Source: Formosa sp. Hel1_33_131 (GTDB lineage Bacteria; Bacteroidota; Bacteroidia; Flavobacteriales; Flavobacteriaceae). From it: a stretch of 32,000 bases of DNA. The stretch is from the NCBI RefSeq assembly GCF_001735745.1, contig NZ_CP017260.1:2040001-2072000 (forward strand). The letters run 5' to 3'. Position numbers and translations under genes: made by a program. Position 1 is the first letter of the stretch; each line of letters opens with the position of its first letter. The notes beneath the pieces are model-generated. The model did not search any database, was not told where the DNA came from, and saw only the letters and a program-made list of their open reading frames with translations. Positions 3,864 through 31,763 of this stretch are shown here, in pieces.

Positions 3864-5033
3864 TTAGTAATTTAATCCAAATGCCCATAGAGGAATTACG
3901 TTTAAGTACCCAAATTCAATATCATCCTTTACTACAAATGATTTTCCATCTTTCTCAATTTGTTTTTGGTGTTTGTTTTTACCTCCAACTTCAAACGTAT
4001 AATTATCAATGGAAAAATCAGCTTTTTTTGAAGAAATCACATCATTTTTAAGTCGCATTTGATTAAAGAAAAAGGTTTCTCGTAAATTTCCTGCATTTGA
4101 TTTTTCTCCAGCCAAATTAAAAATGATATTAGTATTATCTAAATAAACTTTATCAACTTTTCCCAATCCACGAATACCACTTGTGTCATTTCTCAACTGC
4201 CCTATAAGTCCCGCCTTTTCCATATAAGAGAAATAATCGTCTAAAGAATTTCTACTTACATTAATGATTTTTGAAATCTTGGAAAAATTAGGTTTAAATG
4301 GTACACTTTCAGCAATAATAGAAAGCAATTGTTTTAGCTTACGACTTGTTCCAACATTAAGGTTTGCATATTGTGGAATATCTGTTTCTAAGGTTTGTAC
4401 AATGATTTGTCCTAAACGTAAATTCATCTCACTTTCATTTCCAAAAGGATAGTATCCATTTAGTAGATAGTCATTAAATAATGGTAGCGGGTGTTTAATG
4501 TTTTCAAGTTTCACTTCGTTATTGATTATTTGTTCTAACGAATAAACTCCTATTTCGTAATTATGAAAATAGTTTAAATATTCCCGAAATGAGAGACCTT
4601 GTAATTTGTAAATTAAAGCACGGCGACTTAAGTCTGCTGAACCTTTTAGTATATCAAGAACCGACGAGCCTGTAAATACAACCTTTAAAGTAGGATATGA
4701 ATCATAAATATTTTTTAATTCACGCGACCAATCATTGTATTTGTGTATTTCATCGATGAATAAATACTCACCTGCATTTTTATAGAAGTCATCAGCCAAT
4801 TCAGTAAGTTTATTTTCACTGAAATACATGTCATCTGCAGATACATACAATGCTTTTTTATTGTCTAAATTTTCTTTGATATATTGAAGAATCATGGTCG
4901 TTTTACCAACTCCACGAGGACCAATAATTCCGACCATACGACTATCCCAAGAAATTTTCTCGTACAGATAACGTTTAAAATCTGTGGTTGTATTTTGTAA
5001 AAGTGTTTCAAATTTCTGATAAAGTATTCTCAT
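3864..5033 (-). CDS. AAA-family ATPase with a DUF4143-type C-terminal domain (COG1373-like)
   Basis: It has a Walker A motif GPRGVGKTT and a Walker B motif LFIDEIHKY. The length and C-terminal region are typical of AAA_14 + DUF4143 proteins. The gene is AT-rich. Confidence 0.85.
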   Translation of the reverse strand: MRILYQKFETLLQNTTTDFKRYLYEKISWDSRMVGIIGPRGVGKTTMILQYIKENLDNKKALYVSADDMYFSENKLTELADDFYKNAGEYLFIDEIHKYNDWSRELKNIYDSYPTLKVVFTGSSVLDILKGSADLSRRALIYKLQGLSFREYLNYFHNYEIGVYSLEQIINNEVKLENIKHPLPLFNDYLLNGYYPFGNESEMNLRLGQIIVQTLETDIPQYANLNVGTSRKLKQLLSIIAESVPFKPNFSKISKIINVSRNSLDDYFSYMEKAGLIGQLRNDTSGIRGLGKVDKVYLDNTNIIFNLAGEKSNAGNLRETFFFNQMRLKNDVISSKKADFSIDNYTFEVGGKNKHQKQIEKDGKSFVVKDDIEFGYLNVIPLWAFGLNY

Positions 5034-23244: not shown

Positions 23245-24570
23245 ATGTTTAAATACCTTCTTTATTTCAGTCTTATCAGTCCTTTTTTAGGGATGGCACA
23301 ACAACAGGTCAAAGGCGTTTTTTCGCCTGCCAGTAAATTCAAAGCGACCATGTTGTATCAGCTTTCGGCGGGCAATGCGACCTATGTGAGTTATGGCAGC
23401 GTGAACGCACAAGGCGAAATGCAAATTGACCTTGGCGCATCTGTTCCTGCGGGGCTTTATAAGTTGGTCTATGCCCTCCCACAATCCGAACATAATTTTG
23501 AGTTTATATACAACGGAACCGAAGCGGTTGAATTTAATTTTGATAACGAAACAGGAGTTGTATTTACCAATTCCAAAGAAAATCAGCTACTGCAAGGCTA
23601 TACTCAATCAATGGCTTTTGCTCATAACGAATTAATGCAACTGTACGCACAACCGACCATGGATGCTTTGATTTATAAACACCGCGTTCAAAAAATAGAC
23701 AGCCTTCAAAATTCGTACGAAGCGCTGTCCAAAGGAACGATCGCTGCACATTTTATAGCCGCCAGCAAGCCCTATATTCCTAACACGGTAGAAACAGCAA
23801 ACACCTATATTTCAAATGTGAAAGCGAATTATTTTAAAGCCATTGATTTTCAAGATACCATCCTCCAAAGTTCTAATTTTATAGTCGATAAATCACTGGA
23901 TTATATACTCCGAATGCATCTTTCTGGAACACCTTCATTTCAGGGATATCAAGCCAATATTGATGCGGTTTTTAAGGACTTAGGAACAACCGATGTGTCC
24001 TACCAATTGACAACCCTAAATACTTTGAGAGAAGCTCTCATCACGGCGGGACACGATGCTTTGGCAGTGTATCTCACCAAAATTTATGTGCTGCCTTTGG
24101 CGAAACAAGCAAATGACACGGAATTGATTACGTCTTTAGAAACGTTTATACAGATTGCGATAGGGGAGAAAGCACCTGATTTTATAATAGAAAATCCTTC
24201 GGTCATGTCAAAAACGACTCTTTATGACATAGAGGGTGCAACGACTTATCTGTTGATTTTTTGGAGTAGCGATTGTCCCCATTGTTTAAACGAACTTCCC
24301 GAAGTCCATGCGTATATTTCCAATCACCCTGAAAAAAACATCGAAGTGGTTGCCATTGGGATCGAGGCAGGTCCGAAACAATGGACAGAAACCATCCAGC
24401 CTTGGTCGAAATTCACACACAGTATTGCCGAAGGAAAATGGGCGCATGCCATCACAAAAAGCTATGACATTCAGGCAACTCCAACCTATTTTGTGTTGGA
24501 TGCTTCTAAAGTCATTACAGCGAAGCCCTATTTATTGAAAGATTTGAAAGCAGTGTTGGATCAAAAGTGA
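23245..24570 (+). CDS. Secreted thioredoxin-fold protein (TlpA/redoxin-like C-terminal domain)
   Basis: It has a signal peptide. The C-terminal domain carries WSSDCPHC (a CxxC motif) in a TlpA-like context. The ~300-aa N-terminal region has unknown function. Confidence 0.8.
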   Translation: MFKYLLYFSLISPFLGMAQQQVKGVFSPASKFKATMLYQLSAGNATYVSYGSVNAQGEMQIDLGASVPAGLYKLVYALPQSEHNFEFIYNGTEAVEFNFDNETGVVFTNSKENQLLQGYTQSMAFAHNELMQLYAQPTMDALIYKHRVQKIDSLQNSYEALSKGTIAAHFIAASKPYIPNTVETANTYISNVKANYFKAIDFQDTILQSSNFIVDKSLDYILRMHLSGTPSFQGYQANIDAVFKDLGTTDVSYQLTTLNTLREALITAGHDALAVYLTKIYVLPLAKQANDTELITSLETFIQIAIGEKAPDFIIENPSVMSKTTLYDIEGATTYLLIFWSSDCPHCLNELPEVHAYISNHPEKNIEVVAIGIEAGPKQWTETIQPWSKFTHSIAEGKWAHAITKSYDIQATPTYFVLDASKVITAKPYLLKDLKAVLDQK

Positions 24571-24920
24571 TAAAATGCATTTTCAATATGCTCCAATTCA
24601 GAACCTTGATCTGTGAGTACAATCGCGATGATATCAAAACGCACTTCAACTTCTAAATCTCTGGACGTCACAAAATAATCCACTGTTTTGATAATGCGTT
24701 GTATTTGTGCAGGTTTCAGAAATTCTTCGGGCGCTCCAAAGTCGGAAGTACTCCGGGTTTTGACTTCTACCGCTGCCAAACAGTTGTCTTTTTGTGCCAA
24801 AATATCCACCTCGCCTTTTAGATAGCGAAAGTTTTGCGCTAAAATCCGATAGCCTTTAGAGATCAGATACTCCACCGCCATGCCTTCTCCAGAAATACCA
24901 CGATTGTAAGAATCAGACAT
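24561..24920 (-). CDS. yraN: YraN family (UPF0102) endonuclease-like protein
   Basis: It is 119 aa. GEGMAVEYLISKGYRILAQNFR...GEVDILA...VEVKTR is the YraN signature. Confidence 0.88.
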   Translation of the reverse strand: MSDSYNRGISGEGMAVEYLISKGYRILAQNFRYLKGEVDILAQKDNCLAAVEVKTRSTSDFGAPEEFLKPAQIQRIIKTVDYFVTSRDLEVEVRFDIIAIVLTDQGSELEHIENAFYHF

Positions 24921-25074
24921 TGTTATTTTTTTAGAAAATCATAGTCGCGTTCTACTTTGGCAATACGCACTTTGTACTGGCTATACCATGTTTTTTGTCC
25001 TTTAATCTGTGCTTTTTGATGGTCCAAATTGTCTTTCCAGTGTTTGATGGATTCTACATCGCGCCAATAGGATA
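24873..25074. repeat. 202-bp direct repeat, left copy (yraN codons 1-16, 2-bp spacer, last ~50 codons of the ABM gene)
   Basis: It reads identical to 26800-27001 (offset 1927) in my base-by-base comparison. The boundaries are set by the first mismatches on each side. Confidence 0.9.
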
Positions 25075-25168
25075 GTGTCCACCTCTTTTTTAAGGGCTTT
25101 CTCTCTTTTTTTGAGTATGCCAACCTTAAATTTGGTACAGATTCAATATGTGATTTTAGACAACTCAA
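24923..25168 (-). pseudogene. Chimeric ORF made of insert-derived N-terminus and a duplicated ABM-gene 3' end
   Basis: The C-terminal 49 aa (SYWRDVESIKHWKDN...DYDFLKK) are identical to the end of the intact ABM protein at 26850-27173. The N-terminal 32 aa are unrelated sequence and are encoded almost entirely by the insert. Confidence 0.75.
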
Positions 25169-25202
25169 TTAATATTTTTTCATCTTTTTAAGAATTATTA
25201 AA

Positions 25203-25287
25203 CCCGACATTTACCCGACATTAATTTCGATAACTCTAGACTTAACCCCTAATAAACAAGGGTTTAATCCCGACACTAATCCCGACA
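25203..25287. repeat. Four phased copies of CCCGACA (TGTCGGG on the minus strand) arranged 2 + 2
   Basis: The copies are at 25203-25209, 25214-25220, 25269-25275 and 25281-25287. Spacing within each pair is 11 and 12 bp. The pairs are 55 bp apart and flank an imperfect TAACCC/GGGTTTA palindrome. Confidence 0.85.
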
Positions 25288-25312
25288 TTTTAATACCTAT
25301 TTTTTTAACCGT

Positions 25313-26650
25313 TTAATATTCATAGCCTTCTACATTAATAACATACTTCGTAGCCCTTCCATTACCAATTTTTTTAAACATTTTAAATTCAACAAGTTCT
25401 TCAATATCCCTTAACACAGTCCTGTCTGTAATATCAAACATCTCTCTATAAGTCTTATTTGTTATAACTTTATTTTCCTTAATATATCGAATCGCTTTTA
25501 CTTGCCTCTCATTGAGGTCTAATTTCGATAAATAGTGTTCGTTGTAAATATCCTTAAATAGGGTTACAGTTACACCACCTTGCCGCTCTTCAATAAGTGG
25601 CTCTAACAGTCCATAGTTTTTGCATTCTTCAATTATTTTCAATGTGCCACGACCCCAAGCTTCAATATGCCCTCCTTTATAAAACACATTTGCCATCAAT
25701 CTATTTCTAGGAATTGAACGATGGTCTTTCCACAAGTCATCAAGAGTCAAACTTTCTGGCAGTTCTCCAAAATTTGAAATAGAAATTCTATCATTATAAA
25801 CCTTTACAGTTATCGGAGAGATTCCGTATTTTTTGTGTATGATTGCGTTAAATAAAATTTCTCGAATGGCATCGTATGGATACTCTGGCGGTTCTTTTCT
25901 GCTAAGCCCTTCATATTTAATATTTCTAAAAATGTATTTCGAATTGAGTAGTTCAAGTGTCTTGTCCGCCAATTCAAAAGCATTGGTTTCAACAACGTCT
26001 TGAGTAATTAAATCTGACGGTGAATTGCCGAACTTACCTATTTTCAAATAGGCAGTAGTGTAATATCGTTGTGGATTTTTCCCGAACAATAACAATGCAG
26101 CTCTGGTATACCTACCACTTTGGTTAACTAATTCAAGTTTTCTCAAAACAGTTTCTGTATCGGTATCGTAACCAATCGAGGGTAATCTTCCGGTATCAAT
26201 GGCTTTCTTTTTAAAGGATTCGACAGCCTCAAGATTAATATCTTCAATAGATGCGTTATCCATAGTGACAGCATCCCACGTCAGGTTCTTTTTCTTCAAC
26301 AAAAAATCTTCTAAAGCGGTACTATTTAATAATTGATTCGTACTACCGCTTCTTAAGTAGAATTTCCCTTTATATGACACAGGAGAGGAAAATGATTCAA
26401 CTGCTATTTCAATAAAATAGTTATCGTTTTCTTCATGTAAATTCACATCACAAACAATACCAGTCGTATCTTTAATTTTGTTAGGCAACTCGTCCATAAG
26501 TTTTTTATACTTATCAACTCCAACTACATTTCCATTGTCATCTTTACCTACATATAAAACACCACCATTGGCATTAGCAAATCCACTAATCCATTGCAGA
26601 TATTCATCTCGCCACGATTGTTTCCATTCTATGTTTTGTTGTTCAGGCAT
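25313..26650 (-). CDS. AlbA_2/Schlafen-like domain protein with an HATPase_c_4-like region and a C-terminal wHTH (COG2865-type putative regulator)
   Basis: The N-terminus EWKQSWRDEYLQWISGFANANGGVLYVGKDDNGNVVGV is the AlbA_2 signature. The C-terminus LNERQVKAIRYIKENKVITNKTYREMFDITDRTVLRDIEELVE is a wHTH. Confidence 0.85.
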   Translation of the reverse strand: MPEQQNIEWKQSWRDEYLQWISGFANANGGVLYVGKDDNGNVVGVDKYKKLMDELPNKIKDTTGIVCDVNLHEENDNYFIEIAVESFSSPVSYKGKFYLRSGSTNQLLNSTALEDFLLKKKNLTWDAVTMDNASIEDINLEAVESFKKKAIDTGRLPSIGYDTDTETVLRKLELVNQSGRYTRAALLLFGKNPQRYYTTAYLKIGKFGNSPSDLITQDVVETNAFELADKTLELLNSKYIFRNIKYEGLSRKEPPEYPYDAIREILFNAIIHKKYGISPITVKVYNDRISISNFGELPESLTLDDLWKDHRSIPRNRLMANVFYKGGHIEAWGRGTLKIIEECKNYGLLEPLIEERQGGVTVTLFKDIYNEHYLSKLDLNERQVKAIRYIKENKVITNKTYREMFDITDRTVLRDIEELVEFKMFKKIGNGRATKYVINVEGYEY

Positions 26651-26682
26651 GTTCTTATCCTAATAGAATCCATCTTTAAAAT

Positions 26683-26690
26683 CAAAGGTA
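26683..26690 (-). promoter_or_regulatory. -7 box TACCTTTG inside the insert, for the AlbA_2 gene
   Basis: The minus strand reads TACCTTTG, 33 nt upstream of the ATG at 26650. Confidence 0.5.
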
Positions 26691-26799
26691 TGATAATTTT
26701 TAAACATAAAATATAAACTGCATTTGTTCATCGTTTTTAGCGTGGTAACAACACATCCGTTATAAGGGACAGCTTAGCGTAAAAGAGTCGTAGAAGTTG

Positions 26800-26847
26800 C
26801 ACCGCCATGCCTTCTCCAGAAATACCACGATTGTAAGAATCAGACAT
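26800..26847 (-). pseudogene. Duplicated 5' fragment of yraN (codons 1-16) running into insert sequence
   Basis: MSDSYNRGISGEGMAV is identical to the start of the intact yraN. The frame then continues into unrelated sequence and stops at 26737. Confidence 0.8.
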
Positions 26848-27001
26848 TGTTATTTTTTTAGAAAATCATAGTCGCGTTCTACTTTGGCAATACGCACTTT
26901 GTACTGGCTATACCATGTTTTTTGTCCTTTAATCTGTGCTTTTTGATGGTCCAAATTGTCTTTCCAGTGTTTGATGGATTCTACATCGCGCCAATAGGAT
27001 A
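26800..27001. repeat. 202-bp direct repeat, right copy
   Basis: It reads identical to 24873-25074. Confidence 0.9.
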
Positions 27002-27173
27002 TGGTGATTCCAATCTCGGAACTGGCATGTTCCATGCCCAAAAAACCGTCTTGTTGAAGAGCGAGTTCACTCATAAGCGCATCCGTTTCGGCATAGCCTT
27101 CGTTGTCATTTGTTCTTACAGAAGTGAAAATAACGGCGTAATAGGGGGGTGGGGGTGTGTTTGAAATCATCAT
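26850..27173 (-). CDS. Antibiotic biosynthesis monooxygenase (ABM) domain protein
   Basis: It is 107 aa. YYAVIFTSVR...GFLGME...SYWRDVESIKHWKDNLDHQKAQ is typical of small ABM-fold proteins. Confidence 0.8.
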   Translation of the reverse strand: MMISNTPPPPYYAVIFTSVRTNDNEGYAETDALMSELALQQDGFLGMEHASSEIGITISYWRDVESIKHWKDNLDHQKAQIKGQKTWYSQYKVRIAKVERDYDFLKK

Positions 27174-31529: not shown

Positions 31530-31763
31530 ATGAATGTAAGTCTCACACAAAAACAAAAAGATTATATCTCAAATCAAGTAGAATCTGGAGATTTTCAAAA
31601 TGCAAGTGAACTCGTTCGAGATGCTTTGCGTTTACATGAAGTCTATAGACACCGTGTTATTATGGATTTAAGAGCTGAAATTGAAAAGGGGTGGAATGGT
31701 CCCACAAGCAAGCGTACGGTTACAGATATAATTAATGAAAAACGTCAGAAAAAAGTACGCTAA
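31530..31763 (+). CDS. parD: ParD-family type II antitoxin (RHH/CopG-like)
   Basis: It is 77 aa. MNVSLTQKQKDYISNQVESGDFQNASELVRDALRL is a typical ParD/COG3609 N-terminus. The next ORF overlaps it in a TAATG arrangement. Confidence 0.85.
   Translation: MNVSLTQKQKDYISNQVESGDFQNASELVRDALRLHEVYRHRVIMDLRAEIEKGWNGPTSKRTVTDIINEKRQKKVR

Follow-up and report, generated by a model that had tools for sequence, protein, structure and literature searches.

Ectopic DNA is joined at microhomologies of 4–6 nt in microhomology-mediated break-induced replication (MMBIR), in fork stalling and template switching (FoSTeS), in double illegitimate recombination (DIR) and its short-patch form (SPDIR), and in the homology-facilitated illegitimate recombination of naturally transformable bacteria; when the template returns behind the point of departure, a duplication flanks the templated insertion. 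Campbell insertion-duplication is the single-crossover integration of circular DNA, for example suicide plasmids and insertion vectors. Integrative elements carrying the end of their target gene are exemplified by e14 or phage 21 in icd and by tRNA-targeting islands, and cis-mobilizable elements (CIMEs) lack an integrase. SPDIR has been described in a preprint (bioRxiv 10.1101/2023.11.22.568220). The locus analysed here is a foreign insert with a single gene, flanked by direct repeats of 202 nt (R), between the gene of an ABM-like monooxygenase and yraN in Formosa sp. Hel1_33_131. It lies in a chromosomal stretch of 32,000 nt (NZ_CP017260.1, positions 2,040,001 to 2,072,000), hereafter the window, to which all positions refer. 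Like the products of MMBIR, DIR and SPDIR, the insert has a microhomology at both ends and a flanking duplication. Unlike those, it is natural, 1.7 kb long, gene-preserving and kept as a wild polymorphism, its process is deduced from sequence, and one of its joints coincides with a conserved cassette boundary. On balance, it probably arose by an illegitimate insertion that was duplicative and mediated by microhomology, with homologous recombination through R reshuffling the locus later.

The two copies of R, detected by repeat search and compared as strings, were 100% identical and located at positions 24873–25074 and 26800–27001, with a spacing of 1927. All features of the locus are on the minus strand. 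R combines the final 149 nt of ABM and the stop codon with the opening 16 codons of yraN, a spacer of 2 nt lying in between. In the ABM-side copy (26800–27001), the ABM gene keeps an intact 3′ end and its stop, followed by the spacer and a dead yraN stub of 16 codons (26847–26800). In the yraN-side copy (24873–25074), the intact yraN has its start and opening 16 codons, and a dead ABM 3′ fragment is the tail of a chimeric 81-aa open reading frame (ORF; 24923–25168). The order on the minus strand is thus ABM, spacer, yraN stub, insert with a 445-aa gene, chimeric ORF and intact yraN. Both host genes are intact, the ABM gene (26850–27173, 107 aa) being completed by the right copy of R and yraN (UPF0102; 24561–24920, 119 aa) receiving its start from the left copy. 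The insert (25075–26799) is 1725 bp long, with a GC content of ~33% versus ~41% in the flanks, and is missing from 11 empty-site assemblies of the same species. The insertion is in a tightly packed, gene-dense stretch of the marine Formosa chromosome; proteins of the window match AOR29017–AOR29024 of Formosa sp. Hel1_33_131 exactly.

This anatomy agrees with the preliminary description of the locus, which had reported identical 202-bp repeats at an offset of 1927, a single-gene insert of 1725 bp, both host genes rebuilt with a dead fragment on each side, and a repeat of native sequence; empty sites hold exactly one R. As also reported there, the insert lacks terminal inverted repeats and any ORF for a transposase or integrase (ORF list and repeat search), and a length of 202 bp is far outside the target duplications of transposases. 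Tyrosine or serine recombinases were found neither in the insert nor among the ORFs of at least 150 aa in the 32-kb window. The 3′ region of the insert has by eye a T-arm-like look, and a tRNA/tmRNA attachment (att) site was considered and rejected, ARAGORN detecting no tRNA and Rfam no family in the insert.

Loci were gathered from public assemblies by queries with the insert protein, yraN and ABM, and are designated by L numbers. Identical junctions were present in 13 further independent metagenome assemblies, giving 14 filled loci with the window, and an empty site, in which ABM adjoins yraN with a single R, was present in 11 assemblies. The difference between filled and empty loci is exactly the insert and one R, and the junctions were alike in 14/14 filled loci. 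Several filled and several empty loci are on contigs of 100–711 kb, whose names and indel-type frameshifts suggest long-read assemblies. The filled assemblies derive from several separate sampling projects, as judged by record names only. Since the same structure occurs in 13 other assemblies and 11 assemblies hold the empty site, the insertion is a real presence/absence polymorphism segregating in one species and not an artefact. The assembly error that the preliminary description had wished to exclude is contradicted by these junctions, which were obtained with different assemblers, and the uninterrupted ABM–yraN junction that it had proposed to look for in related strains does exist.

Three polymorphic sites near the yraN end of R, at 24884–24885 and 24912 (twins at 26811–26812 and 26839), define its haplotypes and change yraN codons 3 and 13 (D3E and G13R). 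All three common single-nucleotide polymorphisms (SNPs) are nonsynonymous, with G13R arising via a dinucleotide change; they sit within 29 nt, and the kilobases around them hold few variants. The empty sites carried TAG (6 loci), TGC (3 loci) or GAG (2 loci). Written as ABM-side/yraN-side, the filled sites were TGC/TGC (5 loci), TAG/TAG (3 loci, including the window), GGC/GGC (1 locus), TGC/TAG (2 loci, one on a 468-kb contig), GGC/TAG (1 locus) and GAC/GAG (2 loci). The copies were therefore mixed in 5/14 filled loci, always with the xxC type in the copy adjoining the 5′ end of the insert. Among filled loci the insert itself varied by three SNPs and one 2-bp indel, and flank SNPs were reshuffled between filled and empty alleles. 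The mixed haplotypes and shuffled flank SNPs show frequent recombination both through R and around it, so that identical R copies in this strain are no proof of recency; in Hel1_33_131 the identity may be due to gene conversion. The recent event suggested by the preliminary description was too strong a claim, as the insertion is found on at least four R haplotypes and has its own SNPs and 2-bp indel. Later homologous recombination at the locus is supported by these data. Excision of the insert by homologous recombination is plausible, and the empty sites may just be ancestral.

The search for the insert in other contexts, also proposed in the preliminary description, showed that it is homologous from end to end with cassette units in the rearrangement hotspot (RHS) toxin arrays of related marine Flavobacteriia, and that its non-coding ends are better conserved than its gene. 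Units matching the ends were found in L120, L121, L125, L130, L131, L118, L126 and L136. Given that both non-coding ends match RHS cassette units, the insert is, on this homology, a piece of an RHS-associated cassette array. At the 5′ end lies a conserved cassette boundary of ~50–53 nt, here named the C-site (26754–26804; CGGTG/CAACTTCTACGACTCTTTTACGCTAAGCTGTCCCTTATAACGGATG, where the slash marks the joint), whose first 5 nt (CGGTG, 26800–26804) are host yraN sequence and form the left-junction microhomology. Over ~39–45 nt, the 5′ end of the insert showed 92–95% identity to the C-site of relatives, for which the consensus is C(G/A)GTGCAGTCTCTACGACTCTTTTACGCTAAGCTGTCCCTTATAAGGGAAT. The C-site occurs three times in L120 (1393/3357/5051) and twice each in L125 (1335/3102) and L130 (1957/3593), bracketing units in direct orientation in these three loci. 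It is sharply bounded and was found in 8 different left contexts, the left neighbours being an RHS N-terminal fragment, an RHS core end, the end of a glycosyltransferase gene, a small ORF, and RHS-fragment starts truncated after 8, 18 or 24 codons. Its terminus, TGTCCC-TTATAA-GGGAAT, consists of inverted arms with a 6-nt AT spacer and looks like a recombinase core. The C-site had 0 matches in the viral-contig scan, and an Rfam scan of the window's copy only gave no family.

At the 3′ end, the final 94 nt of the insert (25075–25168) are the beginning of an RHS-core-fragment ORF (first ~31 codons, MSCLKSHIESVPNLRLAYSKKERKPLKKRWT), which in relatives goes on as ...KPLKK..G.YYPFGLxHKGYNN; the insert is cut at the point where they enter YYPFGLxHKGYN. 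The last ~95–160 nt matched the sequence that follows the gene in L120, L121, L131, L118, L126 and L136 with 84–92% identity, and 28 aa encoded there were 64–82% identical to RHS-fragment starts. A GGTGGA string near this end was considered as host-derived; an RHS fragment fits better, L118 having GGTGGTAC there. A plasmid or phage origin was also rejected, since only weak partial matches to the coding region (~70–81% identity) were obtained and the C-site gave no viral hits. The donor units occur in Rhs/polymorphic-toxin orphan cassette arrays, with repeated core fragments between them (L120, L125, L138, L118), and the insert retains the start of such a fragment. Unlike in Rhs arrays, the site is a housekeeping gene pair and no toxin/immunity pair came along; the insert was thus not classified as an Rhs orphan toxin/immunity module, having only 31 core-fragment codons and ABM–yraN as its site, although the donor context does qualify. 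In L118, an intact orphan RHS toxin and immunity gene lies downstream. Adjacent co-oriented pairs of tyrosine-recombinase-like genes were observed directly upstream of the closest homologues (L118 806–2646, L155 and L162).

At the left joint, host yraN reads GCGGTG/GAG, the C-site CCGGTG/CAG and the product GCGGTG/CAACTTC; the alignment of host GCGGTGGAG with C-site CCGGTGCAG is exact over 5 nt and matches at 8/9 positions overall. The right joint has CCA/TATCCTATTGG in host ABM, CTAC/TATCCCTTTGG in the relatives and GGACAC/TATCCTATTGG in the product, with an exact match of 5 nt and 9/11 positions overall between host and donor relatives. This second microhomology, TATCC, lies at 25070–25074, with its twin at 26997–27001. 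Overlaps of 5 nt or more would arise by chance at the two joints together with a probability of ~2–4e-5. A search for degenerate homology of the insert ends to yraN or ABM outside R returned only the microhomologies. In host coordinates the 3′ joint is 202 bp upstream of the 5′ joint, and it is this crossed order of the joints that duplicates R. Each novel joint thus carries a microhomology, and in related units the donor segment continues beyond both joints (the RHS core at the 3′ side and other sequence left of the C-site), as in microhomology-mediated insertion. The right end is not a fixed terminus, as relatives continue past it into the RHS core, and across the family the gene lay 0 to ~660 nt from the bracketing repeats; both observations argue against a dedicated end-recognising enzyme, and fixed cassette termini across the family were rejected on the same distances.

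Under the favoured microhomology-mediated reading, a 1.7-kb unit would have been copied or cut from an RHS-toxin-associated cassette array of a marine flavobacterium, in the order C-site, AlbA_2/HATPase_c_4 gene, 3′ repeat array and start of the next RHS-core fragment. Its 5′ end would have been joined at CGGTG, in yraN codon 15–16, and its 3′ end at TATCC, in ABM codon ~57, so that the host interval between the joints was kept on both sides of the insert and ABM and yraN remained whole. This gene-sparing outcome would be the accident that selection keeps. In one step, a replication template switch (MMBIR/FoSTeS-like) could have led to the donor and returned 202 bp behind the departure point; in two steps, a simple insertion at CGGTG could have come first, and homology-facilitated illegitimate repair at TATCC, with wild-type DNA as partner, second. 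The anatomy, donor homology, microhomologies, polymorphism and chimeric R copies were shown; the enzymology, the number of steps and the excision are inferred, the mechanism from the microhomologies and the geometry. Afterwards, R-insert-R would have behaved as an ordinary segregating allele, which homologous recombination via R and the flanks would have moved to other backgrounds, homogenising or mixing the R copies and probably deleting the insert from time to time.

In the family of the insert gene, direct repeats were counted at homologue loci that extend 1.5 kb or more to each side and in equal-sized control windows of the same loci. Repeats of at least 30 bp bracketed 18/76 homologue loci versus 6/93 controls (Fisher p=0.0017), and repeats of at least 100 bp bracketed 9/76 versus 2/93. 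Two of the bracketed loci are clean host-gene duplications like that of the window. In L046, the duplication takes in 345 bp at the 3′ end of a radical-SAM gene. Downstream of the cassette, the copy differs by 29% over 222 nt while retaining conserved motifs, and by 2% over the following 126 nt. On this pattern, the foreign copy travelled with the cassette from another lineage, which is evidence for spread via carried homology. In L097, the duplicated 117 bp span the stop of GT1 and codons 1–39 of GT2, with six codons differing between copies, four of them synonymously; the cassette also repeats part of its own 3′ end in tandem (3836–4103/4171–4419), with a second copy coding for the winged helix-turn-helix (wHTH) region (ORF 4111–4341). 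Other brackets were RHS core fragments, C-sites or a palindromic intergenic element common to several genomes.

The latter (category B, flanking L071, L077 and L115) is absent from the window and has no Rfam match. It is an imperfect palindrome of ~70–130 nt (..CACATTGnCAAAGCC..AGCCAAC..CTTTGnCAAAGAGCTTGCAAA) located after, and sometimes before, the homologous gene, always co-oriented, in unrelated Bacteroidota genomes (L071 5833–5960/7461–7588; L077 1305–1436/2865–2998; L115; L084 7359–7495; L112 7365–7432; L088). In L048, a repeat of 42–56 nt (..CCCCTGATTACTACCCCGCAGGTATTTTGTACCCGGGTGGC..) occurs five times, at 1850, 3502, 4312, 5876 and 7404, between successive genes including the homologue, a layout that looks like a cassette array.

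Several data weigh against an origin of the insertion by microhomology. The exact donor was not found in the genome and metagenome scans, in which the closest protein was 75% identical, and the donor side of both joints is read from relatives 80–95% similar at the ends. The left joint is within 0–3 nt of a boundary that serves as junction in 7 other places, a position unlikely for a random break, which suggests a preferred DNA end or a recombinase site. Moreover, bracketing direct repeats are about four times commoner at homologous cassettes than in controls, which hints beyond a one-off accident.

The topology of the product is also that expected from Campbell-type single-crossover (ends-in) integration of a small circle already holding one R and the cassette, the model put forward in the preliminary description; as in Campbell insertion, there are direct repeats of the target, both genes are intact and the state would be reversible by homologous recombination. 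In 5/5 mixed haplotypes the insert-adjacent copy was donor-like and the yraN-adjacent copy of the common host type, a polarity predicted by a crossover within the first 160 nt of R. In addition, filled and empty alleles coexist, and the cassette of L046 brought a diverged copy of its own target. However, the haplotypes are equally explained by gene conversion and ordinary allelic recombination, and no replicon, vector backbone or circle was seen. Locus L117 (2050 bp, with a terminal overlap of 123 nt implying a 1927-bp circle) was rejected as an excised circle, since it would be a collapsed-repeat graph loop if the assembler k was 123, the usual setting of the Joint Genome Institute (JGI). As an origin, the model requires an earlier event that placed R on the circle and leaves unexplained how 202 bp of host DNA met an RHS fragment at two microhomologies. 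Two illegitimate joints are needed under any model, and the homology was created by them rather than pre-existing; Campbell integration therefore does not account for the origin, for which we regard it as unlikely. Later spread may nonetheless have followed the Campbell route, as in L046, and recombination within R is real, given the chimeric R copies and coexisting alleles; the model does not fit the origin, the ends being an RHS boundary and an arbitrary ORF cut with 5-nt microhomologies.

Site-specific recombination at the C-site by a recombinase acting in trans, in a cassette- or CIME-like manner and with host GCGGTGGAG as a pseudo-site, was considered in view of the sharp boundary, the 8 left contexts, the inverted arms and the direct-orientation bracketing of the C-site. 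The host site matches 8 of the first 9 nt of the C-site, and tyrosine-recombinase-like ORFs adjoin the closest homologues L118 (a pair), L121 and L126. Cleavage of this kind at the left joint is possible, given the sharp boundary, the core-like palindrome and these neighbouring tyrosine recombinases. Against the model as a whole, a recombinase is absent from the insert and the examined flanks in the 32-kb window, such a crossover yields no 202-bp duplication, and the right end has an arbitrary ORF cut instead of a second C-site. The palindrome is degenerate in the window, without a fold, and the C-site is limited to few marine loci, the same gene alleles occurring without it. The whole model is thus rather improbable. 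With the integrative elements in icd or tRNA genes and with CIMEs, the locus shares long repeats containing a gene end, rebuilt genes and a displaced fragment at the far side, and the identical block beside a diverged block in L046 is their typical pattern. Unlike in those elements, there is no integrase and no att core common to both ends, the right end is arbitrary, and R, the only sequence common to both junctions, is pure host sequence. An integrase-mediated element was rejected because the left end is conserved and the right end arbitrary, with no recombinase among the window ORFs of at least 150 aa. For similar reasons, the phage att site (attP) copying the target, offered in the preliminary description as a second possibility, was discarded, as the ends are an RHS cassette boundary and an arbitrary point in the RHS-core-fragment ORF. 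An integron gene cassette was rejected as well, because neither the 5′ boundary nor the 3′ region folded stably, an integrase was lacking, and neither Rfam nor other hits were obtained.

The sole gene of the insert (25313–26650) encodes 445 aa, with SLFN_AlbA_2 at residues 3–108, HATPase_c_4 at 279–364 and a C-terminal DeoR-like wHTH at ~375–440, and is annotated as 'ATP-binding protein/RecG-like'. The protein resembles the Schlafen-type modules fused to prokaryotic Argonautes in PADLOC and, by domain similarity, is probably defence-associated. It has thousands of homologues, the closest outside this locus being 75% identical; the only solved structure for this type is 3LMM, an uncharacterised protein, and a literature search on the AlbA_2 and HATPase_c_4 pair found nothing relevant. 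Soon past the stop, four copies of ATGTCGGG(A/T) are arranged 2+2 (25199–25290) around a short hairpin (25244–25264). This array is the local form of one that recurs across the family: of 145 homologues (L021–L195), 119 (82%) had an 8-mer in three or more copies within 110 nt past the stop, versus 18/116 control windows. The motif has the shape (A/T)(A/T)TGNNNN(A), a spacing of 10–13 nt and a lineage-specific core, ATGTCGGGA in the window and others including ATGTCCGAT, ATGGCGGAT, TTGGCTCA, ATTGCACC and TGGGTCGAAAG. Homologues sharing a core had more similar C-terminal wHTH regions (0.605 versus 0.470 at matched N-terminal identity), and the repeats may be a cis site for the protein itself. 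Elsewhere in the window, a ParD/ParE toxin–antitoxin pair (31530–31763) lies beyond metG and was also seen in loci whose fetched flank extends past metG (L001, L010, L011, L013 and L032).

The precise C-site, the lineage-specific 3′ arrays of 8–12-nt repeats that co-vary with the wHTH, the variable 3′ ends and the frequent brackets by long duplications of the landing sequence are the grounds for assigning a small probability to an undescribed cassette mobilisation system of Bacteroidota, with the AlbA_2/HATPase_c_4/wHTH genes as its cargo or even its agent. If this were true, such a cassette would have reached its housekeeping operon in Formosa by landing off-target.

A transposon-like element with very long staggered cuts, for which R would be a 202-bp target-site duplication, is very improbable. 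Direct repeats of host sequence do flank the insert and bracketing repeats are enriched around homologues. On the other hand, there is no transposase and no terminal inverted repeat, the ends are not constant among homologous insertions, the duplications are 30–708 bp long and often diverged or of foreign origin, and the copies in L046 cannot have been identical at birth. A transposon or insertion sequence (IS) was accordingly rejected, the sole ORF being AlbA_2/HATPase_c_4 and 202 bp contrasting with the usual 2–15 bp. Finally, although a 202-bp repeat breaks short-read assemblies, contigs of which sometimes end at R (L018–L020 begin there; the L117 graph loop), an assembly artefact or collapsed strain mixture has a negligible probability in view of 14 independent assemblies, including contigs of 100–470 kb and an isolate genome closed with PCR and Sanger reads.

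The architecture of this locus is unusual, yet it is best explained by known recombination processes in an uncommon, gene-sparing combination; a cassette system not yet described has a modest chance, given the conserved C-site and what is seen across the family. The bracketing repeats and 3′ arrays found across the family may mark a recurrent route of gain for this gene family. In Formosa, a streamlined bacterium, an accessory, probably defence-related gene was gained inside a housekeeping pair, neither gene of which was broken, and the insertion needed no mobile-element enzyme of its own. Two crossed joints with short overlaps would have produced the 202-bp duplication, rebuilt both genes and left the insertion reversible. 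At this one locus the source (RHS arrays) and the joints can be seen together with the segregation of filled and empty sites in bloom populations, which makes it a testable model of gene gain and loss outside classical islands.

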